A DNA stretch of 64,000 nucleotides from Alphaproteobacteria bacterium (GTDB lineage: Bacteria; Pseudomonadota; Alphaproteobacteria; Rickettsiales; SXRF01): contig JANRJW010000004.1 of assembly GCA_033763775.1 (NCBI GenBank), positions 8,755 through 72,754 of the forward strand. The letters are read 5' to 3'. Under the pieces are notes generated by a model that searched no databases, had not been told where the DNA came from, and was given only the letters and a program-made list of their open reading frames with translations. This document shows, in pieces, positions 2,703 to 22,438 of this stretch (position 1 is its first letter; each line of letters starts with the position of its first letter). The translations under genes and the position numbers were made by a program.

Positions 2703-3938
2703 TTAAACGGCAAGCTTTCTAAGCAGCTCGGATTCGGCCTGACCACCGTACATATAGTCACGGGTGATTGGCAAGGCATTGATTTTCTTTGAAAATTGGA
2801 TCTGCCACGCCATGGTTCCGGAGTAGATCATCGCCAGTTCGCAGCCGGTGAGGTACAGGTCGAACATGCGGTAAAACACCTCGCCATTCATGGCGCGGAT
2901 GCGCTCGCTGTTTGCACGGTAGCGTTTTTTCCATTCGCGCAGCGTGTAGGAATAGTGCAGGCGCAGCACCTCGGCATCGGTCACCCAGAAGCCAGCTTTT
3001 TCGATAAAGGGGATGGTCTCCGAAAGCGCCGGCAGGTAGCCTTTTCTGAACATGTATTTTTCCAGCCATGGCTGCGTGGCGAGCGAGGGTTTGTTGTAGC
3101 CGATCGAGTGCAGCAGCATGAGGCCATCTTCTTTCATCAGCTCATGCACTTTGCCAAAATATTCCGGATAGTGAGGCAGGCCAACATGCTCGAACATGCC
3201 CACCGAAACAATGCGATCAAAAGTCTCGCTCACGTGGCGATAATCCTGCAGTCGGATATCGATTTTATCTTGCAGCCCGGCGGCTTTCACACGCTCTACG
3301 GCGAGCTGGTGCTGCTGCGCCGAAAGCGTGACACCCACGACGCTCACGCCTTTTTGCTTCGCCATTTCCATCGCAAGCCCGCCCCAGCCGCAGCCAATAT
3401 CCAGCACGCGCTGGCCGGGCGATAAATTTAGCTTGGCGATGATGTGGTTTTTCTTATTGATTTGTGCCTGTTCCAGCGTGTCGTGCTCGCTTTTGAAATA
3501 GGCGCAGGAATACTGCATGTCCTTGTCGAGAAACAGCTGGTAGAGCTCATTGGAAATATCGTAGTGAAACTGAATGTTTTTGGTGGCGTAGCCGATGGCG
3601 TTATTCTGCCAGATACGGCGCAGCGCATAGCGCGCCAGCGTGATGGCTTTTGCAAAAGGAAAATCACGAAACGCCTGGTTGTTGGCCGCCAGCACGCGCA
3701 GAAATTTATCAAGATCACCGTCATCAATCGTCATCGTGCCGAACATGTAGGCCTCCGGCAGGTTGATGGAGGGGTTCGCTACCAGCTTCCAATGTAGCGC
3801 TTTATCATGCAGCGTAATCGCGGTGGATTCGCCCGGGCTACCTGCATAGTGGTGGCGCTTGCCGGTGGCATCGGTGACGGTGAGTTCGCCGCGTTTGATG
3901 ATGTGGCGAAACAGCGCGCCGGCGGGAAAATCGAGCAT
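2703..3938 (-). CDS. cfa: cyclopropane-fatty-acyl-phospholipid synthase family methyltransferase
   Basis: 411 aa. SAM motif VLDIGCGWGGLA and the typical CFA synthase C-terminal half (FEHVG, YSYTLREW). Confidence 0.85.
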   Translation of the reverse strand: MLDFPAGALFRHIIKRGELTVTDATGKRHHYAGSPGESTAITLHDKALHWKLVANPSINLPEAYMFGTMTIDDGDLDKFLRVLAANNQAFRDFPFAKAITLARYALRRIWQNNAIGYATKNIQFHYDISNELYQLFLDKDMQYSCAYFKSEHDTLEQAQINKKNHIIAKLNLSPGQRVLDIGCGWGGLAMEMAKQKGVSVVGVTLSAQQHQLAVERVKAAGLQDKIDIRLQDYRHVSETFDRIVSVGMFEHVGLPHYPEYFGKVHELMKEDGLMLLHSIGYNKPSLATQPWLEKYMFRKGYLPALSETIPFIEKAGFWVTDAEVLRLHYSYTLREWKKRYRANSERIRAMNGEVFYRMFDLYLTGCELAMIYSGTMAWQIQFSKKINALPITRDYMYGGQAESELLRKLAV

Positions 3939-13715: not shown

Positions 13716-14549
13716 TTAGCTGATGGCGTAGATCAAAGCGCTTAAATCACAATGATTTAGCTGATTTTTCGCCTGCGCGCGCACGTTTGGTTTGGCGTGG
13801 TAGGCAACGCCAAGACCTGCGGCGAGCAGCATCGGCAGATCGTTCGCCCCGTCGCCGATGGCGATGGCTTCAGCGGGAAAGATGCCAAGTTTAGCGCATC
13901 CCTCATTCAGCGCGGCGAGTTTGGCATTTTTATCGAGAATGGGGGGGATGACGCGGCCTGTCAGCTTGCCTGCTGCGATTTCGAGCTTGTTGCTGCGCTC
14001 CTCATCAAACCTGAGCCGCGCTTTGATACGCTGGGTATAAAAACTGAAGCCACCAGAGACGAGCATGGTGTAAATACCGGCATCTTTCAGCGCTTTCATC
14101 AGCGCCTCGGCGCCGGGCATGAGCCGCACGCGCTCATCGTAAACTTCCTGCAAGGCTGATTCGGGCAGGCCAGCAAGGAGGCCTACGCGCTCTTTCAGCG
14201 CCTGCTCAAAATCCAGCTCGCCATTCATGGCGCGCCGTGTGATGGCTTCGATTTTATCCCTGAGGCCGACATAATCCGCCAGCTCGTCGAGGCATTCATT
14301 CTCGATGATGGTCGATTCCATGTCCGCAACGAACAGCTTATAGCGCGGGCGGGGATGGGGCTGGATGATGATGTCAGATGACAGATGACGGATGACGGAT
14401 GACGAATAGTTCTCGACGATCAAACGACAAGCGATGCCTGCTTCCAGCCAGCATACATCTTGCGCCTTAAGATCGCGCGCGGCGCTATCCACCTCTTGCG
14501 TTGTCAGTGGGTTTTGTTTGGGGTTGGCAAGCAGGGTGATGGAAAACAT
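13716..14549 (-). CDS. serB: phosphoserine phosphatase
   Basis: 277 aa. HAD motifs (FVADMESTII, SGGF, GDGANDL). Divergent from miaA. Confidence 0.85.
   Translation of the reverse strand: MFSITLLANPKQNPLTTQEVDSAARDLKAQDVCWLEAGIACRLIVENYSSSVIRHLSSDIIIQPHPRPRYKLFVADMESTIIENECLDELADYVGLRDKIEAITRRAMNGELDFEQALKERVGLLAGLPESALQEVYDERVRLMPGAEALMKALKDAGIYTMLVSGGFSFYTQRIKARLRFDEERSNKLEIAAGKLTGRVIPPILDKNAKLAALNEGCAKLGIFPAEAIAIGDGANDLPMLLAAGLGVAYHAKPNVRAQAKNQLNHCDLSALIYAIS
14370..14404. repeat. five tandem heptamers GATGWCR inside serB
   Basis: gatgtca gatgaca gatgacg gatgacg gatgacg. Confidence 0.8.
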
Positions 14550-14559
14550 AATTTTATCA

Positions 14560-14624
14560 TTTCCGCATCAGCGGGAATCCTGTAAATAGTTTAGCGCAGG
14601 ATGCCTGCTTTCGCAGGCATGACA
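14560..14624 (+). repeat. double-hairpin repeat related to copies A and C, upstream of miaA
   Basis: tttccgc-atca-gcgggaa, then atgcctgc-tttc-gcaggcat followed by gaca-AGGA. Ends 10 nt before the miaA ATG. Confidence 0.7.
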
Positions 14625-14633
14625 AGGAAAAAA

Positions 14634-15485
14634 ATGAAAAAAATTCATATCATCGCCGGGCCAACTGCCAGCGGTAAGTCAGCGCGGGCACTGGCGCTGG
14701 CGGAAAGCACGGGCGGCGTGATCATCAACGCGGATTCGCAGCAGCTTTTTAAAGACCTGCCGATTCTGACTGCGCGCCCAACCAAGCAGGACGAAGCGCG
14801 CGCACCGCACAAGCTTTACGGCTTACTCAACGCCAACGAATCGCCCTCGGCTGGGAAATGGCTGAAATGGGCAAAGATGGAGATTGACTGGGCACTCGCT
14901 GAATGCCGCCTTGCGATTGTGGTGGGGGGAACTGGGCTTTACCTGAAGGCGCTCACCAAGGGGCTAGCCGAAATTCCTGATATTGACACGGCAGTGACAA
15001 AGCAAGCAGCGAATGATTATGAGGCAATGGGAAAAGCTGCGTTTGAGGAACGGCTGAAAGTGGTTGACCCGCTCTTTTTTGAGCGGCTCAAGGTGTATGA
15101 TAAGCAGCGGCTCATTCGCGCTTACGGCGTGTGGCTTGGTTCCGGCAAGCCGCTCACCTACTGGCAGCAGCAGGAGCAAAAACCGTTTTATTCCGAGGAT
15201 TATTTCGAAATCGAAAAGATAGAGGCGGAGCGCGAAGAACTCTACCAGCGCTGCGACCAACGTTTTGATAAGATGATAGAAATGGGCGCAGTAGAGGAAG
15301 TGCGTGAATTTATCGAAACCCGCCAGCTGGCTGCTGCTGGTTTGGAGAAGATTATCGGCTTCAGGGAGCTTTCTGCCTATCTACGCGGCGAGCTGGTGCT
15401 TGAACAAGCAATTGATAAAGCAAAACAAATGACCAGAAACTATGCCAAGCGCCAGATGACCTGGTTTCGGCATCAATTGTCATGA
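14634..15485 (+). CDS. miaA: tRNA dimethylallyltransferase
   Basis: IIAGPTASGKS P-loop and typical MiaA body. ATG at 14634 after AAGGA. The track extension (MPAFAGMTRKK) is encoded by a hairpin repeat. Confidence 0.9.
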   Translation: MKKIHIIAGPTASGKSARALALAESTGGVIINADSQQLFKDLPILTARPTKQDEARAPHKLYGLLNANESPSAGKWLKWAKMEIDWALAECRLAIVVGGTGLYLKALTKGLAEIPDIDTAVTKQAANDYEAMGKAAFEERLKVVDPLFFERLKVYDKQRLIRAYGVWLGSGKPLTYWQQQEQKPFYSEDYFEIEKIEAEREELYQRCDQRFDKMIEMGAVEEVREFIETRQLAAAGLEKIIGFRELSAYLRGELVLEQAIDKAKQMTRNYAKRQMTWFRHQLS

Positions 15486-15567: not shown

Positions 15568-17775
15568 ATGACAACACAAGACAAGAAAAACACCATGCTT
15601 CCATGGCATGTGGTGTTTGTAGCCAGTACGACGCCAGAAAAACTCAGGGATTTTCAGGTTGCTGCCACGGCTAAGGGGTGGCCGATTCTTTTTGCGGATA
15701 TCCGTGAGATTATAGGCGTCTATCACAACGTGGACGAAAACGGCAAAGATTTTAAGGTCAATGCTGGCTTGAAGCGTAGCGTGATTGAGCGCTTTGTTGA
15801 TGTGCTGCGTAAGGATGACAACAATCTCAAGCAGTGGTGCCAGAATAACGGGTTGGAGTTTGATCGTGCCCGGGTGCATTTCATGACCGAGGATTCGGGT
15901 TTTAGTGTACCAAAGGAGATATGGGACAAAATTGATAAGGACGGAATCCCTGACTACGTTCAGAAAAGAATTGATGAATCGAGTTCCCGCAGGCTTGGCG
16001 GGCCAGGTGTGGAGACTGGCCCTGTGGTAAGTGCGCTTCTGGGCGCGGGTAACCTGATGGGGCGTATCTTGCAGGCGGCTGGACCAGATATTCAGCGCGC
16101 CCATATCGAAGCGAAACAATATAGCACCGTCGCGGTTCTTTCGCTGAACCACCCGAACCACACCTTCAAACCACTAACGGTAGAGGTTGCCAGCTATATT
16201 CGTCCTAATTCTGACGATGGCCCGCGTGTCAGTAATTATAATTATGTTCGCTCTAAGGAAAAACCATATAGTTCGGCTGCTGCATTGGGTGAGCAATATA
16301 TTTCCAATTACAGCCCGCGCGCAAAGATTGTTGATTATCTGGCCGAGGATGTCTGCAAGCTCAGCCCTGCTCAGAAAATAAAAACACCCCTTAAACGCCA
16401 ACCCGCCAAGCAGTTTAAAACGGCATTGCTTGGAGCAGATCGCGGTGAAAAGGATTCGCTGCGTCAGTTTCTGATGGACGCAGGTAAACGAGATCAGATG
16501 ACACCGACAGAAATCGTATCATTTGACGCTTCCCATCAGCCTATTGAGGTCGGATCTGCCTCAATGCGGGCGAATGCTGCCTTATCATACGTGGAAAATC
16601 TACTGAGTGAGACTAACGCAGTATTATTGCCACCGTCTGATATTGAAAACTCAGTTGATCCATTGTTTGATCGAGCAAAGCAGCTTTATGACCTGATGTC
16701 GCTCATTGTGGCCAAGCAGCTGAACCCGCGCGATAGCAACAAGCCCATCATTATCATGAACCATAAAGGTGCCTGGGATGATGCGGTGAGGCTCCATTAT
16801 GACCTCGCGAACATGTCGCTGACGAAGGAGCACTCTATTTTGCTGCCAGTAGATGTTAATGGCAATGGTGCTGCTGTTAAGGCTCATTCCAACAGCTATT
16901 TTCATGTGTTAAGCGGTGATGACCAGCGCAAAATCGAAAAAGCCGCAAGCTATCTGCTGTCGCAGGCAAGGCAGGGCTTTGTATCGGTAGAAAATTCAGA
17001 GCAGCCAACCATGCAAGAGGGCACTTCGCCCGATAAAGATCAGCGATTCAAGGTGGCGGTATTTTGTTCCGCCAGCTGCGAAAACGCCACACTTAATGCA
17101 TCGCTGAAGGATTTATCATACCGCCTTTCAAAAGATGGTTATGGCATCATTTATGGCGGGGGTGACCGCTACACAATGGGCGCGGTACTGGATGGTGTTA
17201 GGCGGCATCGCGACGAGCTGGTGGCGCAGGGCATGACGGCGGTGGCGGCCAAAGAAGCAACCTATATTGCTGGTATCAGCACTGATTTAATCGCGGCAGC
17301 GGAAACCGAAAAAGGTGAGCTTTCGCCCGACCTTAACTATCGCGAGCTGACCCGCGATATTTATGACCGTATGGCCAAAATGCTGGTACCTTCTGATGCC
17401 ATTGTCATCGCACCGGGCGGTGCTGGAACCGTGCAGGAATGGATGGCAGCGCTTATGCTACGAAAACTCGAGCCAGAGAGTTTTGCCGGTAAGCCTATTG
17501 TGGTCTATAATCCCCAGCTTCTTAAAGAAAAACCGGGTCTTGCAGAACATGAGAAAAAAGTCTGGGACGGCCTGCTTAAGCACATGCTTGGCGAAAAGGA
17601 CTATCGCCTTTTAACCTCGGCAGAGCCAGCGATGCAGGCGGCGCGTCTCAGACGTAGTCGTGAGCTGGGCATCTATGTGGAGACGCAGGTCGAAGATGTT
17701 CAGCAGCGCCTTGATCAGCTTGCTCGTGAAAAAAATACTGCACACAGGCAGGGTGCTGGCGTTGCTATCGGATAA
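15568..17775 (+). CDS. multidomain protein: N-terminal Ham1/RdgB (ITPase)-like domain, degenerate LOG-like middle domain, C-terminal LOG/TIGR00730-like domain
   Basis: 735 aa. aa ~14-260: VVFVASTTPEKLRDF, VDENGKDFKVNAGLK, TEDSGFSV and LGGPGVETG parallel the ITPase motifs (ATgNxgK, EEtGxtFxeNAxxK, DDSGL, LnGxPGv). aa ~495-650: VAVFCSAS, YGGGDRYTMG and APGGAGTVQEW match GGGxxGxMG and PGGxGTxxE. aa ~285-455 keeps the LOG layout (KPIIIMNHKGAWDD), but PGGxGT is replaced by PPSDIEN. Confidence 0.6.
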   Translation: MTTQDKKNTMLPWHVVFVASTTPEKLRDFQVAATAKGWPILFADIREIIGVYHNVDENGKDFKVNAGLKRSVIERFVDVLRKDDNNLKQWCQNNGLEFDRARVHFMTEDSGFSVPKEIWDKIDKDGIPDYVQKRIDESSSRRLGGPGVETGPVVSALLGAGNLMGRILQAAGPDIQRAHIEAKQYSTVAVLSLNHPNHTFKPLTVEVASYIRPNSDDGPRVSNYNYVRSKEKPYSSAAALGEQYISNYSPRAKIVDYLAEDVCKLSPAQKIKTPLKRQPAKQFKTALLGADRGEKDSLRQFLMDAGKRDQMTPTEIVSFDASHQPIEVGSASMRANAALSYVENLLSETNAVLLPPSDIENSVDPLFDRAKQLYDLMSLIVAKQLNPRDSNKPIIIMNHKGAWDDAVRLHYDLANMSLTKEHSILLPVDVNGNGAAVKAHSNSYFHVLSGDDQRKIEKAASYLLSQARQGFVSVENSEQPTMQEGTSPDKDQRFKVAVFCSASCENATLNASLKDLSYRLSKDGYGIIYGGGDRYTMGAVLDGVRRHRDELVAQGMTAVAAKEATYIAGISTDLIAAAETEKGELSPDLNYRELTRDIYDRMAKMLVPSDAIVIAPGGAGTVQEWMAALMLRKLEPESFAGKPIVVYNPQLLKEKPGLAEHEKKVWDGLLKHMLGEKDYRLLTSAEPAMQAARLRRSRELGIYVETQVEDVQQRLDQLAREKNTAHRQGAGVAIG

Positions 17776-17809: not shown

Positions 17810-19624
17810 ATGCCCTTTACAACGCGGTGTGCCATGAAATCTGCAACGAAAATAACGACGCAGCAAGCTGACCATTCTGCCGCCGACCTTCTCGGTGCGG
17901 AGGCGATTGTGCGTGCGCTGGCGAATGAAGATGTGGATACGGTGTTTGGTTATCCCGGCGGCGCGGTGCTGCCGATTTATGACGCGCTCTTCAAGCAGAA
18001 CCATGTGCGCCATATTCTAGTGCGCCATGAGCAGGCGGCAACCCACGCCGCGGAGGGCTATGCGCGCTCCACTGGCAAGGTGGGGGTGGTGCTGGTGACG
18101 AGCGGCCCGGGCGCGACCAATGCGGTCACCGGACTCACCGATGCGATGCTGGACTCGATCCCGATGGTGTGCATTACCGGGCAGGTGCCCACGCACCTGA
18201 TTGGCTCGGATGCGTTTCAGGAAGCGGACACGACCGGCATTACACGCTCCTGCACGAAATATAATTATCTCGTGCGCTCGGCACCGGAATTGCCGGGTAT
18301 CATCCATGAAGCATTCCATGTCGCGCGTAGCGGCAGGCCGGGGCCGGTGGTGATTGATATTCCCAAAAATATCATGAACCAGAAGCTGGTTTATCACGGC
18401 AAGCCGGAGACGGTGCGCGCCTCTTACAATCCGCAGGTGAGGGGCGATGAGGCGCAGATCGACAAGGCGATTCAGCTGATGGCCACCGCCCGCAGACCGA
18501 TTTTTTATGTCGGCGGCGGCGTGATTAACTCAGGCCTTGATGCCTGCGCGAAGCTGACCGAATTTGTGCGCATGACCGGCTTTCCCTGCACCAACACGCT
18601 GATGGGGCTTGGCGCATTCCCGGGCAATGATCCTCAATTTGTCGGCATGCTCGGCATGCATGGCAGCTTGGAAGCCAATATGTGCATGGCCGAGTGCGAC
18701 GTGATGATCAATATCGGCGCGCGGTTTGATGACCGTGTGACTGGCAGGCTGGATGCGTTTTCGCAGAAATCCAAAAAAATCCATGTCGATATCGACCCCA
18801 GCTCGATCAACAAAAACGTACGCGTGCATGTGCCGATTGTGGGCGATGCGGGGGTGGTGATCGAGCAGATGATGGCGGCGTGGAAAGCTCGCAGCGCAAA
18901 ACCAGACAAGGCGGCGCTGGAGCAGTGGTGGCAGAAAATCGAAGGCTGGCGCGCGAAGAAAAGTTTTTCTTACGATCAGGGAAGTGAAATCATTAAACCG
19001 CAGCACGCGCTGGCACGCCTTCAGGCGCTGACGAAAGCGCGCTCGCCTTACATCACCACCGATGTCGGCCAGCACCAGATGTGGGCGGCGCAATATTTGA
19101 TTTATGAAAAGCCCTATAAATGGATGACGAGCGGTGGCCTGGGGACGATGGGTTACGGCCTGCCATCAGCGATGGGCGTGCAGATCGCGCATCCGGACGA
19201 GCTGGTGGTGTGTGTCACCGGCGAGGCGAGCTTCATGATGAATATTCAGGAGCTGTCGACCATCACCCAGTACCGCCTGCCGGTCAAAATTTTTATCCTG
19301 AATAATCACTGCATGGGCATGGTGCGCCAGTGGCAGCAGATGTTCCATGGCTGCCGCTACAGCGAATCTTACATGGATTCGCTGCCGGATTTCGTGAAAC
19401 TTGCTGAAGCCTATGGCATGAAGGGGCTGCGCTGCGAAAAGATCGAGCAGCTCGATAGTACCATTGAGCAGATGCTCGCTACTCCTGGCCCGGTGCTATG
19501 CGACATCATCGTTGACCCGGAAGAAAACGTCTACCCGATGATTCCCGCAGGTGCGGCGCATTACGAGCTGCTGCTGCGCCCTGAAGATAATAAAGGCGAG
19601 ATTAAGACGGGGGATCTTTTATGA
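17810..19624 (+). CDS. ilvB: acetolactate synthase large subunit
   Basis: 604 aa. FGYPGGAVLPIYDA, ThDP motif GLGTMGYGLPSAMG. Alternative ATG at 17834. Confidence 0.95.
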   Translation: MPFTTRCAMKSATKITTQQADHSAADLLGAEAIVRALANEDVDTVFGYPGGAVLPIYDALFKQNHVRHILVRHEQAATHAAEGYARSTGKVGVVLVTSGPGATNAVTGLTDAMLDSIPMVCITGQVPTHLIGSDAFQEADTTGITRSCTKYNYLVRSAPELPGIIHEAFHVARSGRPGPVVIDIPKNIMNQKLVYHGKPETVRASYNPQVRGDEAQIDKAIQLMATARRPIFYVGGGVINSGLDACAKLTEFVRMTGFPCTNTLMGLGAFPGNDPQFVGMLGMHGSLEANMCMAECDVMINIGARFDDRVTGRLDAFSQKSKKIHVDIDPSSINKNVRVHVPIVGDAGVVIEQMMAAWKARSAKPDKAALEQWWQKIEGWRAKKSFSYDQGSEIIKPQHALARLQALTKARSPYITTDVGQHQMWAAQYLIYEKPYKWMTSGGLGTMGYGLPSAMGVQIAHPDELVVCVTGEASFMMNIQELSTITQYRLPVKIFILNNHCMGMVRQWQQMFHGCRYSESYMDSLPDFVKLAEAYGMKGLRCEKIEQLDSTIEQMLATPGPVLCDIIVDPEENVYPMIPAGAAHYELLLRPEDNKGEIKTGDLL

Positions 19625-19626
19625 GT

Positions 19627-19679
19627 GTCACCCCGTCGAATGACGGGGTCCGGATGCCGTCATAAAGACGGCATGACAG
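19627..19679 (+). repeat. double-hairpin repeat, copy A (gtcaccccgtcgaatgacggggtccggatgccgtcataaagacggcatgacag)
   Basis: Two 8-bp stems. The 3' 31 nt are identical to copy C at 20720-20773. Confidence 0.85.
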
Positions 19680-19688
19680 AGTAGGTGT

Positions 19689-20000
19689 ATGACCAAACAA
19701 TACTACGTCTATATCCTGGCCAAGGCGCGAAATAGTACGTTTTATATTGGTGTGACGAATGATTTAATACGTAGAGTTTATGAGCATAAGCACGGTTTGG
19801 CTGATGGATTTACTAAAAAGTATGGTATCAAAATGCTGGTATATTATGAAATGTGCGATGATGTGAATGCGGCCATATGGCGGGAAAAACTGATCAAGAA
19901 ATGGCGCAGAGAAATAAAAATGGAAGCGATTGAACGCATGAATCCGCAGTGGAAGGATTTGTATGTTGATTTAGTAGGTCATACCATGCCGCCTTCATGA
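19689..20000 (+). CDS. GIY-YIG nuclease family protein (UPF0213/YhbQ-like)
   Basis: 103 aa. YYVYILAKARNSTFYIGVTNDLIRRVYEH carries the GIY-YIG motif pair. AT-rich. Confidence 0.85.
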   Translation: MTKQYYVYILAKARNSTFYIGVTNDLIRRVYEHKHGLADGFTKKYGIKMLVYYEMCDDVNAAIWREKLIKKWRREIKMEAIERMNPQWKDLYVDLVGHTMPPS

Positions 20001-20050
20001 CGGCATCCGGGTATCATCAAAACCAGACCTCGTCATGAAGACGGGGTGAC
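19985..20050 (-). repeat. double-hairpin repeat, inverted degenerate copy B
   Basis: The reverse complement reads gtcaccccgtcttcatgacgaggtctggttttgatgatacccggatgccgtcatgaaggcggcatg. It overlaps the GIY-YIG stop codon. Confidence 0.7.
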
Positions 20051-20057
20051 AAGTAAG

Positions 20058-20081
20058 ATCAAGACGGGGGATTTGTTGTGA
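20058..20081 (+). repeat. duplicated relic of the ilvB 3' terminus
   Basis: atcaagacgggggatttgttgtga versus ilvB 19601-19624 attaagacgggggatcttttatga. 20 of 24 nt are identical and both encode IKTGDLL-stop. Confidence 0.75.
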
Positions 20082-20088
20082 AAAGGGA

Positions 20089-20697
20089 ATGGTTCAAATG
20101 ACGAATTGGAGAAATGAGACCGATTTGGAAAAAGCCAAAATCGCTGTTCTTACTTTTATCAGAGCCTACGAAAGTTTAAGACGGGATGACGGTTCCTATC
20201 TTCATGACGCAAGCAATTGGCGGGACGCCGCGTCTCGCACAGAGATTCTCAACGCCCTAAGCGCACATGGAATTTCCATTGGGGGTTTTATTGAGCAATC
20301 GGAGGATCAAACGCTGGATCAAATTAACAAGCTGCAATACGGTCAACCCAATCCATACCCAACAGATAAAGCGCTAGCGCAAAAAGCACTTGATGAGCTA
20401 GTAAAAGAAGGGCTTGTGGAAATAAAAAATCTAGTTGGGGGTAATAGAAAGAACATTACTCCGGCAAAATATCGTGTTACCGAAAAGGGAAAGAAATTTG
20501 AGCTTCCATCTGTAAATATTGGTGGGACGCAAGTACAATATAATACCAAACCCGTACAAGAGGATGTGAGTCAAGCATCAGGCGTTTCATCTGGGGTGCG
20601 TGACAAGTGGACAGGTATCATGAGTAGTGTTCGCATTCATTTACCCAATGACGGCGTTACGCTTAAACCCAAGAAAGGCGGCTGGGAGATCGAATGA
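20089..20697 (+). CDS. hypothetical protein with probable winged-helix segment
   Basis: 202 aa, AT-rich. ALDELVKEGLVEIKNLVGGNRKNITPAKYRVTEKGKKF resembles a wHTH. Confidence 0.5.
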   Translation: MVQMTNWRNETDLEKAKIAVLTFIRAYESLRRDDGSYLHDASNWRDAASRTEILNALSAHGISIGGFIEQSEDQTLDQINKLQYGQPNPYPTDKALAQKALDELVKEGLVEIKNLVGGNRKNITPAKYRVTEKGKKFELPSVNIGGTQVQYNTKPVQEDVSQASGVSSGVRDKWTGIMSSVRIHLPNDGVTLKPKKGGWEIE

Positions 20698-20719
20698 CCC
20701 TCGCCCCCCTATATCAATT

Positions 20720-20773
20720 GTCACCCCGTGCTTGTCACGGGGTCCGGATGCCGTCATAAAGACGGCATGACAG
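20720..20773 (+). repeat. double-hairpin repeat, copy C
   Basis: gtcaccccgtgcttgtcacggggtccggatgccgtcataaagacggcatgacag. The first stem carries compensatory changes relative to copy A. It ends 10 nt before the ilvN ATG. Confidence 0.85.
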
Positions 20774-20783
20774 GACAACCTAT

Positions 20784-21332
20784 ATGACCACCGAAACCCT
20801 CGATATCGTCTATGACATCCCGAAAATCACCGACAAGCCGTCGCGCCATACGCTCGCGGTGCTGGTGGATAACGAGTTTGGCGTGCTGGCGCGGGTGATT
20901 GGTTTGTTCTCTGGGCGCGGCTACAACATCGAGTCGCTCACGGTGGCCGAGGTGGAGCATGAGAAAAAACTCTCGCGCATCACCATCGTAACTTCCGGTA
21001 CTGAGCATGTGATTGAGCAGATCAAAAAGCTGCTTGAGCGCATGGTGCCGGTGCATAAGGTGCATGATTTAACCGTGGAAGGCGCGCATGTGGAGCGCGA
21101 GCTGGCGCTGCTGAAAGTGGTGTCGAAGGCAGAAAACCGGCAGGCGGCACTGAAAACCGCTGATATGTTCCGTGCGAAAGTGATTGATTCGACCCCGGAA
21201 TCATTTGTGTTTGAAATAACCGGCGAGGCACGCACCATCGACGAACTGATTGCCATGATGCAGCCGCTTGGGTTGACCGAAATCTGCAGAACGGGTATTG
21301 CTGCGGTTTCGCGCGGAAAACAAGGTATTTAG
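20784..21332 (+). CDS. ilvN: acetolactate synthase small (regulatory) subunit
   Basis: 182 aa. ACT domain start HTLAVLVDNEFGVLARVIGLFSGRGYNIESL. Confidence 0.95.
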   Translation: MTTETLDIVYDIPKITDKPSRHTLAVLVDNEFGVLARVIGLFSGRGYNIESLTVAEVEHEKKLSRITIVTSGTEHVIEQIKKLLERMVPVHKVHDLTVEGAHVERELALLKVVSKAENRQAALKTADMFRAKVIDSTPESFVFEITGEARTIDELIAMMQPLGLTEICRTGIAAVSRGKQGI

Positions 21333-22364
<1,032 letters not shown>

Positions 22365-22367
22365 ATT

Positions 22368-22435
22368 AGCCCCGCCGAATGGCGGGGTCTGGTATATTAT
22401 AAGCGGGGACCGGACCCCGCAATAAATGCGGGGCC
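22368..22435. repeat. CCCCGCC-hairpin inverted pair (compact copy)
   Basis: agccccgccgaatggcggggtctggtat followed by accggaccccgcaataaatgcggggcc. The central ccccgc can pair with gcgggg on either side. Fills the ilvC-leuA spacer. Confidence 0.8.
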
Positions 22436-22438
22436 AAC

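Follow-up and report, generated by a model that had tools for sequence, protein, structure and literature searches.

A GIY-YIG nuclease cassette with terminal hairpin repeats and a duplicated gene end at an alphaproteobacterial ilvB–ilvN junction

What separates ilvB from ilvN in this alphaproteobacterial genome, and how does ilvB stay intact when a second copy of its own end lies beyond the insert? We analyzed a 64,000-nucleotide stretch of contig JANRJW010000004.1 (assembly GCA_033763775.1), hereafter the window, from an organism that sits in a clade of metagenome-assembled genomes labelled Rickettsiales or Alphaproteobacteria. In the window, ilvB (acetolactate synthase large subunit; 17810..19624, + strand), with three thiamine pyrophosphate (TPP)-enzyme Pfam domains and an alignment to its relatives that runs through the stop codon, and ilvN (small subunit; 20784..21332, + strand), with ACT and ALS_ss_C domains, are both intact and lie 1,159 nt apart. 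The gap holds, in this order, a double-hairpin repeat (A), a gene for a 103-aa GIY-YIG nuclease, a second repeat (B), a second ilvB terminus, a 202-aa open reading frame (ORF202) and a third repeat (C), and its GC content (0.39–0.49) is lower than that of the flanks (0.53–0.57).

The original prediction, made from the letters of this DNA, had placed all of these features at, or within 1–2 nt of, the positions that we obtained, and had read them as a homing-type selfish element that supplied ilvB with a replacement 3' end. The selfish-insert reading proved broadly right; the homing-type label was not supported. Judging by its architecture, the stretch at ~19625–20055 is very probably an Ssn-type cassette, in which the gene for a single-domain GIY-YIG nuclease lies between its cognate hairpins; these resemble the published repeats SRM and NTS. 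Insertion took place exactly at the overlap between the ilvB stop codon and the start region of the following gene, in an ancestor that this genome has in common with one close relative and possibly with a second.

A nuclease gene inside nested inverted hairpins

Ssn proteins are single-domain GIY-YIG nucleases of ~94 aa (CDD cd10448) that bind oriented hairpin repeats; the repeat NTS is CGTCATTCCCGCGMAVGCGGGAATCYRG, and its generalized form has been named SRM, for Ssn-related motif (Chenal et al. 2025, Nat Commun, PMC11893778). The window nuclease (19689..20000, + strand) matches PF01541 (E 6.7e-14) over residues 4–75 of 103, with no other domain detected, and retains the catalytic residues Y8, Y19/G21, R28/R29 and E66, along with the residues of all 32 alignment columns in which 16 homologues show no variation. 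A homologue search with this protein gave more than 7,900 matches; similarity to UPF0213 structures was only distant (E 1.6e-3). The intron-endonuclease model TIGR01453 aligned with residues 7–55 only and scored 17.2 bits against a cutoff of 56, and no DNA-binding domain was found in the 103 residues.

Loci from related genomes that were compared with the window carry L-numbers (L002, L164 and so on). The ratio of nonsynonymous to synonymous substitution (dN/dS) of the nuclease gene was 0.036 against L005 and 0.08 against L002; the gene is intact and, by this measure, under strong purifying selection. Orthologous copies of the nuclease are 90–91% identical at a synonymous divergence of 0.4–1, indicating that the insertion is old. 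A promoter scan of the window copy gave nothing above chance.

The hairpins on either side of the gene follow one design, in which (T)GTCAY is followed by an 8-bp stem, a loop of 4–5 nt, the return stem and RTCCGG (general form RTCYGG). We distinguished two hairpin subtypes, SRM1 and SRM2, and denoted the orientation of each oriented motif by + or −. Each double hairpin consists of two convergent SRMs. Repeat A joins SRM1(+) (19626..19653, + strand; TGTCACCCCGTC-GAAT-GACGGGGTCCGG), the left outer terminal repeat, which recurs as the same hairpin in L172, tail-to-tail with SRM2(−) (19649..19679, − strand; reverse complement CTGTCATGCCGTCTTTATGACGGCATCCGG), which was recovered by a relaxed SRM scan and by DNA folding and has its like in L170. 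Repeat B runs SRM2(+), a 12-nt spacer and SRM1(−): a degenerate SRM2 (19978..20010, + strand) overlaps the nuclease stop codon, and an SRM1 with one stem mismatch (20023..20051, − strand), which also folds, forms the right outer terminal repeat. As inverted copies of A, the inner arms (19650–19675 and 19985–20010) are 92% complementary and the outer arms (19626–19637 and 20040–20051) match at 12/12 positions. The nuclease gene thus lies inside nested terminal inverted repeats in the order SRM1+, SRM2−, nuclease, SRM2+, SRM1−.

Repeat C (20719..20773, + strand; SRM1+ at 20719–20747 and SRM2− at 20743–20773, by SRM pattern and fold) is laid out like A, and by this layout is a second, gene-less SRM pair at the junction of ORF202 and ilvN, ending 10 nt before the ilvN ATG. 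Repeats A (19627–19679) and C (20720–20773) have a 37-nt block in common that is 100% identical, and each folds as two DNA hairpins (−18.4 to −20.2 kcal/mol, z = −5.5 to −6.4). The heptamer CCTATAT occurs as a direct repeat (20708–20714 and 20779–20785), 5 nt beyond either end of C, and the ORF202 stop region at 20694–20703, ATGACCCTCG, resembles the ilvN start, ATGACC…CTCG. Both window features are so short that they may be due to chance; the corresponding position in L164 carries a clear ilvN 5' relic of 72 nt.

The published degenerate SRM pattern, HGTCWYN(0-2)YYVSBRHN(0-5)WNVSBRGN(0-2)RNCYNB, matched exactly at 20719–20747 only, and shuffled windows gave 0–2 matches; SRM1 of repeat A is one base off this pattern, and the SRM2 copies also fall outside its strict form. 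Strict hairpin patterns revealed no further copies in the 64-kb window, and a relaxed scan added one convergent pair at 14557..14625, between an ORF at 13716–14549 (− strand) and an ORF at 14601–15485 (+ strand). The genes flanking this pair are divergent, with no nuclease gene nearby, and its − strand hairpin, GTCATGCCTGCGAAAGCAGGCATCCTG, is close to the Neisseria NTS consensus. In all, the window contains a single nuclease gene and three SRM-pair loci.

We surveyed cassettes around ~80 metagenomic nuclease homologues (46–73% identity) together with those from related genomes. Terminal inverted repeats that start with (T)GTCAY and are themselves palindromic hairpins flank most of the metagenomic homologues, and inverted terminal hairpin pairs around a nuclease gene occur across many phyla. 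In an alignment of 24 terminal arms, 98.2% of cells were paired and 6/7 stem pairs showed double compensatory changes, as compared with 23–46% in controls in which the pairing was slid along the alignment, indicating that the hairpin is constrained across the family. The differences between A and C had been taken for compensatory changes only, implying selection on the structure. One swapped stem pair does distinguish them, but the loop differs too (GAAT vs CTTGT), and both hairpin-1 variants, the A type and the C type, recur in other genomes (L172 and L173). A and C are therefore two pre-existing repeat subtypes and not the outcome of local compensatory change.

Empty sites, occupied sites and duplicated gene ends

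Across 80 ilvN loci, the distance between ilvB and ilvN ranged from overlap to ~2.3 kb. The junction is empty in L008 and L013, in which the ilvB stop overlaps the ilvN start (GTGA / ATGA), and holds a single ORF with neither hairpins nor nuclease in L004 (IlvN 93% identical) and L169. The L169 ORF is 53–58% identical to ORF202; since this site has the order ilvB, ORF, ilvN in the absence of hairpins, ORF202 is older than the cassette at this junction. The cassette occupies the ilvB/ORF junction in the window, L002 and L005. L002, whose IlvN is 100% identical to that of the window, has the nuclease, B, an identical second ilvB terminus, another ORF (157 aa) whose tail is conserved, C and ilvN; L005 has ilvB, A, a nuclease of 91% identity, one hairpin, 17 duplicated nt from the ilvB end, yet another ORF and ilvN. 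In L164 and L165, an ORF 72% identical to ORF202 is accompanied by two inserts. At the ilvB/ORF junction, these loci have two hairpins of another SRM type without a gene, flanked by the ilvB end of the window type and by a second terminus. At the ORF/ilvN junction, a complete cassette of a second type comes after 72 nt that are a relic of the ilvN 5' end; where L164 has this full cassette, the window has repeat C alone. A gene-less unit lies at 2857–2959 in L164, and L166–L168 show only parts of the L164/L165 arrangement, on short contigs. The GIY-YIG gene and its hairpins are thus a discrete insert at a normally tight junction, as had been proposed; polymorphism is abundant, and paired segments encoding IKTGDLL are confined to sites with an SRM element in between.

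The theme of duplicated ends recurs at other junctions. In L021 and L104, a cassette after ilvN is followed by a 74–77-nt duplicate of the ilvN 3' end. In L002, a 61-nt fragment of the leuA 5' end precedes a cassette, and the contig ends before any second leuA copy. Duplicated ends are hence present at three junctions (ilvB 3', ilvN 5' and ilvN 3'), with the leuA 5' fragment at a fourth. A lone right hairpin lies ahead of leuA in L005, and L022 has a gene-less unit (3143–3230) as well as a full cassette; among its four SRM copies, the stem-loop is either the same or varies in the 3' tail alone. The spacer between ilvC and leuA is variable, with 74 nt in the window (22365–22438) and 1.2–2.8 kb in L002 (2470–3680) and L005 (5576–8400), where extra opposite-strand genes, tandem hairpin repeats (L002, 2504–2598) and SRM remnants are found.

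Nucleases 75–80% identical to that of the window, with the same SRM1 and SRM2 hairpins, were found in unrelated operons: between pdhA and pdhB (L170), between ilvC and a DUF805 gene followed by leuA (L171), between an ABC permease gene and that of its ATPase (L172), and between a gene for a 217-aa protein and flhA (L173–L175). Cassettes of the same type were found at eight or more unrelated junctions. Next to the cassette of this type in L170 there is a canonical NTS (CGTCATTCCCGCGAAGGCGGGAATCCA), and gene-less hairpin copies in L170 also form clusters like those of repetitive extragenic palindromes (REP) and bacterial interspersed mosaic elements (BIME). In a rough, ORF-based count over 41 non-redundant loci, 28 cassettes lay between co-directional neighbors, with the nuclease gene co-oriented in 24 of the 28. 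In L002, L005 and L173, the nuclease ORF reads through the right hairpins, which encode tails such as DPxxxxG, and ends on the start codon of the next gene; this indicates that the cassettes behave as operon hitch-hikers. The distribution over operons argues, at the level of sequence comparison, against site-specific homing and for transposon-like spread. Directly upstream of the SRM cluster and cassette of L172, the 3' end of the ABC permease gene is perfectly duplicated in tandem over 15 nt (AGTAAGGGACATTAA x2; 2346–2375), which could be an excision footprint or a slipped duplication.

At the ilvB end of the window, a functional terminus (19599..19624, + strand; …GATCTTTTATGA) and a second terminus (20056..20081, + strand) form a 26-nt direct repeat of 85% identity that brackets the insert and leaves ilvB intact; the repeat score was reached in none of 200 shuffles of the flanks. 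Over the 24 coding nucleotides, four differences fall in three codons and are all synonymous, and both copies encode IKTGDLL and a stop. The second terminus had been described as a relic. It consists of a Shine-Dalgarno sequence (GGGGGA) and a GTG(A) start, lies in the nuclease reading frame, and is identical over 26 nt in L002; its 24-nt coding part equals the functional ilvB end of L005 exactly, despite a synonymous divergence of ~0.7–1 between the lineages. The motif GGGGGATTTGTTGTGA is kept at the nucleotide level in the second termini of the window, L002, L164 and L005, and is also found in the functional ilvB ends of L005 and L169 and, with one change, of L004; in the empty site of L008, it occurs with a weaker Shine-Dalgarno sequence, and its GTG is the ilvN start. 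Because the motif has remained identical despite such divergence, the most fitting reading of the relic is as a coupling module, Shine-Dalgarno sequence plus start, that belongs to the downstream gene and is set within the last ilvB codons.

The derived ilvB end of the window is common only to L164, and L004, L005, L006, L008 and L169 keep the ancestral GATTTG(Y)TGTGA/TAA. After insertion, the downstream copy kept the ribosome-binding and start role for the next gene, and the upstream copy, needing only …GDLL and a stop, drifted synonymously to GATCTTTTATGA in the window and L164. On this reading, the relic is the ancestral copy and the functional ilvB end the derived one. The nuclease ORF of L002 and L005 continues into the relic, where it terminates at a TGA that overlaps the following GTG. 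The ORF of the ORF202 lineage probably now begins 17 nt further on, at the ATG at 20098. We conclude from these comparisons that the insertion predates the split from L002, and possibly that from L005, and that the junction became duplicated (17–26 nt), with the upstream copy completing ilvB.

The proposal that the element supplies its own replacement 3' end receives some support from L164. The ilvB gene of L164 is identical to that of L005 from −100 to −43, and its last 42 nt are of the window type with one difference; this switch on an L005-type gene suggests that the terminal piece was inherited together with the left insert junction, TGA-GT-GTCA. However, later gene conversion could also account for the crossover at −42. 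Separately, the window's ilvB has a strongly divergent patch of ~120 nt (~19385–19505), unique among four relatives. It departs at ~30% of positions from the sequence on which L004, L005 and L164 agree, in surroundings 97–100% identical to L004, and has the look of a brief gene-conversion tract whose source was a more distant lineage. We rejected this patch as a co-conversion tract of the cassette, given the ~120 nt of ordinary sequence between the two; the L164 crossover makes the better case.

Whether each unit is flanked by duplicated target sequence had been raised with the original prediction. Among 36 cassettes surveyed, five had significant flanking duplications; duplications at the ilv junctions measured 17, 26, 72 and 74–77 nt, and ~30 other cassettes had no significant flanking repeat, so that target-site duplication was rejected as a family-wide feature. 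We conclude, from these sequence comparisons, that duplications of 17–77 nt accompany some insertions and that selection retains them at overlapping gene junctions.

ORF202 (20089..20697, + strand; probable true start ATG 20098) evolves fast (dN/dS = 0.18) and has just three homologues among 5.8 billion proteins. Its winged-helix-like character, part of the original prediction, is echoed in matches to TBPIP, HTH_45 and PadR (E 0.02–0.2), all below threshold; searches against Pfam, NCBIfam and PADLOC yielded nothing above it, and an AlphaFold model from four sequences was unusable (pLDDT 38). ORF202 may thus be a winged-helix protein. Compared with L002, the window shows 40–59% identity across the ORF and 92–100% on either side. 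By this contrast, the ORF bracketed by SRM pairs is replaced between strains. The neighborhood is a recombination mosaic, in agreement with reports on genes flanked by NTS in Neisseria.

The clade carries a fast-evolving small ORF between ilvB and ilvN that is often translationally coupled at both ends (GTGA … ATGA). Besides ORF202, versions lie at 328–801 in L002, 3594–4004 in L004, 3537–4004 in L005, 2051–2437 and 3513–4004 in L007, 985–1800 in L009, 3129–3998 in L017 and 98–679 in L169. Several have the N-terminal motif D-[LV]-E-[KR]-A-K-x-G/A-[IV]-L-x-F in common, and their winged-helix matches (PadR, MarR_2, HTH_45) are likewise sub-threshold. Toxin-antitoxin-like pairs occupy the same spot in other lineages (L014, L041).

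Mobility weighed against domestication, homing and RNA function

How might such cassettes move? By analogy with its family, the nuclease would bind the SRM hairpin in single-stranded DNA, for instance at a replication fork or in transforming DNA, and nick a few nucleotides 5' of it. Since the terminal SRMs are inverted, the nick on either strand would fall at the 5' boundary of the element itself, and such nicks would provoke recombination or repair synthesis by which cassettes are spread or exchanged and the neighborhood becomes mosaic. The element, having no promoter of its own, would ride on operon transcription and translational coupling. Duplications of 17–77 nt could arise from staggered nicks and fill-in, or from one-sided homologous plus illegitimate recombination of imported DNA. 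We tentatively propose, as a reading that falls somewhat short of even odds, that Ssn-SRM cassettes are mobile elements outside the current insertion sequence (IS) classification, that a GIY-YIG single-strand nickase is their mobility enzyme, and that they lodge preferentially, and co-oriented, at tight junctions in essential operons, surviving because insertion duplicates or imports 17–77 nt of a gene end and so regenerates the host gene and its coupling signal.

Several observations weigh against the reading as an inserted Ssn-type cassette. The Ssn assignment draws on architecture, invariant residues and hairpins rather than on an alignment with SsnA or placement in cd10448, and the published SRM pattern is exact in just one of five hairpins. 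The window copy has a degenerate right end, is the only nuclease gene in the window and gives no sign of recent movement; its strong purifying selection suits domestication as well as selfish maintenance. Four of the five significant flanking duplications are at ilv genes. Finally, the spacers between duplication and hairpin vary from 0 to 9 nt, and the junctions fit no single cleavage position.

The strongest competitor, which we consider rather unlikely, is a domesticated system as in Neisseria that cuts incoming or exposed single-stranded DNA at hairpins and controls recombination across ORF202, the duplication being a historical scar. The copy is old and has a low dN/dS. The nuclease gene and ORF202 lie between the SRM pairs A and C, which are in direct orientation; the ORF enclosed in this way is exchanged for another between strains that have identical IlvN; and on either side, ilvB and ilvN show a recombination mosaic. 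In N. meningitidis, NTS repeats are found in clusters near variable genes and the system modulates transformation (PMC11893778), an analogy that is applied here to an uncultured lineage. Domestication is also compatible with mobility, as cassettes and gene-less pairs clearly arise at new sites, and L004 and L169 have the same ORF family without SRMs, so the ORF does not need them. The window copy may be domesticated or maintained at the level of the element.

Much less probable is a free-standing GIY-YIG homing endonuclease, which would make a double-strand break in the uninterrupted ilvB–ilvN (or ilvB–ORF) allele and whose gene would be copied from the occupied allele during repair together with a replacement ilvB 3' end, leaving the resident end stranded. 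GIY-YIG ORFs that bring a replacement gene terminus have precedents in fungal mitochondria, and the insert, like a homing gene, lies between conserved genes and is polymorphic for presence and absence; the differences between the two ilvB ends are all synonymous, as are 5/5 in L021, and the 42-nt piece of L164 went with the left insert junction on an L005-like gene. However, the L021 and L104 duplicates have shared derived states and show within-genome homogenization, so that synonymous-only differences are possible without a foreign donor, and the relic that homing would leave stranded is a conserved ancestral module. GIY-YIG homing endonucleases combine the nuclease domain with a C-terminal DNA-binding domain in ~200–300 aa and have one cognate site. 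The window protein has 103 aa, no such domain and a TIGR01453 score of about 17 bits; its gene sits between terminal inverted hairpin repeats that also form gene-less derivatives, and near-identical cassettes of the same type recur in unrelated operons. In characterized relatives, cleavage falls on single-stranded DNA, a few nucleotides 5' of the hairpin, and spares both double-stranded DNA and RNA (PMC11893778). A phylogenomic study of 2006 classed such proteins as Slx1-like repair nucleases and listed no GIY-YIG homing endonucleases in Alphaproteobacteria (PMC1564403).

We regard as very improbable, and as the weakest of the alternatives, that the repeats are REP-like operon RNA elements (mRNA stabilizers or attenuators) whose duplicated terminus came from replication slippage unrelated to the nuclease gene. 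Stable hairpins in the intergenic spacers of a co-transcribed operon, and cassettes co-oriented with operons, would suit such elements. Yet no terminator-type T-tract follows the hairpins; a promoter and terminator scan of 19400–20900 gave nothing beyond shuffle expectation, the hairpins coinciding with no intrinsic terminator and nothing terminator-like being called on the + strand; and Rfam, at the gathering threshold, had no match in the whole window. The inverted hairpin pairs enclose a nuclease gene across many phyla, and in several independent cases the cassette is exactly what the duplicated ends enclose.

Should the mobility that we propose be driven by a GIY-YIG single-strand nickase, these cassettes would represent a new mechanistic class of bacterial transposable element and would also explain the spread of palindromic "GTCAT…" repeats through many genomes. 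There is also a warning here for annotators: the hairpins give rise to small "hypothetical" tails such as …DPxxxxG and to short duplicated gene ends.

Outside the insert, a gene for a 735-aa protein (15568–17775) lies upstream of ilvB, and the same gene precedes ilvB in L164. Its LOG/'lysine decarboxylase'-type domain covers residues 560–650 only, and the long N-terminal region has no Pfam match. A run of heptamer-like repeats (GATGAC[AG], as in gatgacagatgacggatgacggatgacga) at 14361–14405 falls within the minus-strand ORF 13716–14549.

Comparison with known systems

The window cassette has terminal inverted repeats in common with generic insertion sequences and transposons. It also resembles in plan IS200/IS605 elements and REP-RAYT (REPtron) systems, in which a small nuclease gene also lies between hairpins recognized as single-stranded DNA, gene-less copies occur and domestication is possible. 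The enzymes differ, HUH/Y1 in those systems and GIY-YIG as the only enzyme in the window unit. IS200/IS605 elements moreover cut both ends on one strand and make no duplication, whereas the end hairpins of the window are inverted, which would put the cleavable orientation on opposite strands, and duplications of 17–77 nt are found at cassettes here. Free-standing GIY-YIG homing endonucleases (phage T4 Seg, I-TevI class) resemble the window cassette in catalytic domain, location between conserved genes, presence/absence polymorphism and co-inheritance of flanking sequence; the cassette differs in having no DNA-binding domain, terminal inverted hairpins and many unrelated sites, and in belonging to a family whose members cut only single-stranded DNA. 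Miniature inverted-repeat transposable elements (MITEs), such as the Neisseria Correia elements, are likewise short gene-less inverted-repeat units in operon spacers, as are A and C in the window and the units of L022 and L164; here, however, an autonomous partner encoding a GIY-YIG nuclease is identifiable, and each arm is itself a hairpin.

The closest parallel is the Ssn system. SRMs lie on both sides of 42% of Ssn homologues, and the arrangement NTS-ssnA-NTS has been likened to an insertion sequence, with mobility only hypothesized (PMC11893778). The window unit agrees with it in a single-domain GIY-YIG protein of ~100 aa, inverted oriented hairpins starting with (C/T)GTCAY on both sides, gene-less repeats near variable genes, an insertion-sequence-like layout and a strong presence in Rickettsiales-like Alphaproteobacteria. 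It differs in that its hairpins are a subtype of their own, with two subtypes nested at each end, and in that its protein is known from sequence alone. A search of the available literature library returned no report of mobility evidence, an operon-junction lifestyle or gene-end duplications for Ssn, and one on GIY-YIG proteins with MITEs or terminal inverted repeats returned nothing on bacterial cassettes; in these three respects, the comparative evidence assembled here is new relative to the Ssn work. The window and its relatives supply what the idea of Ssn mobility lacked: orthologous sites in both empty and occupied form, more than one insertion point within a single operon, derivatives without the gene, closely related cassettes spread over unrelated operons, a strong bias toward co-orientation inside operons, and duplicated gene ends that keep essential genes intact.

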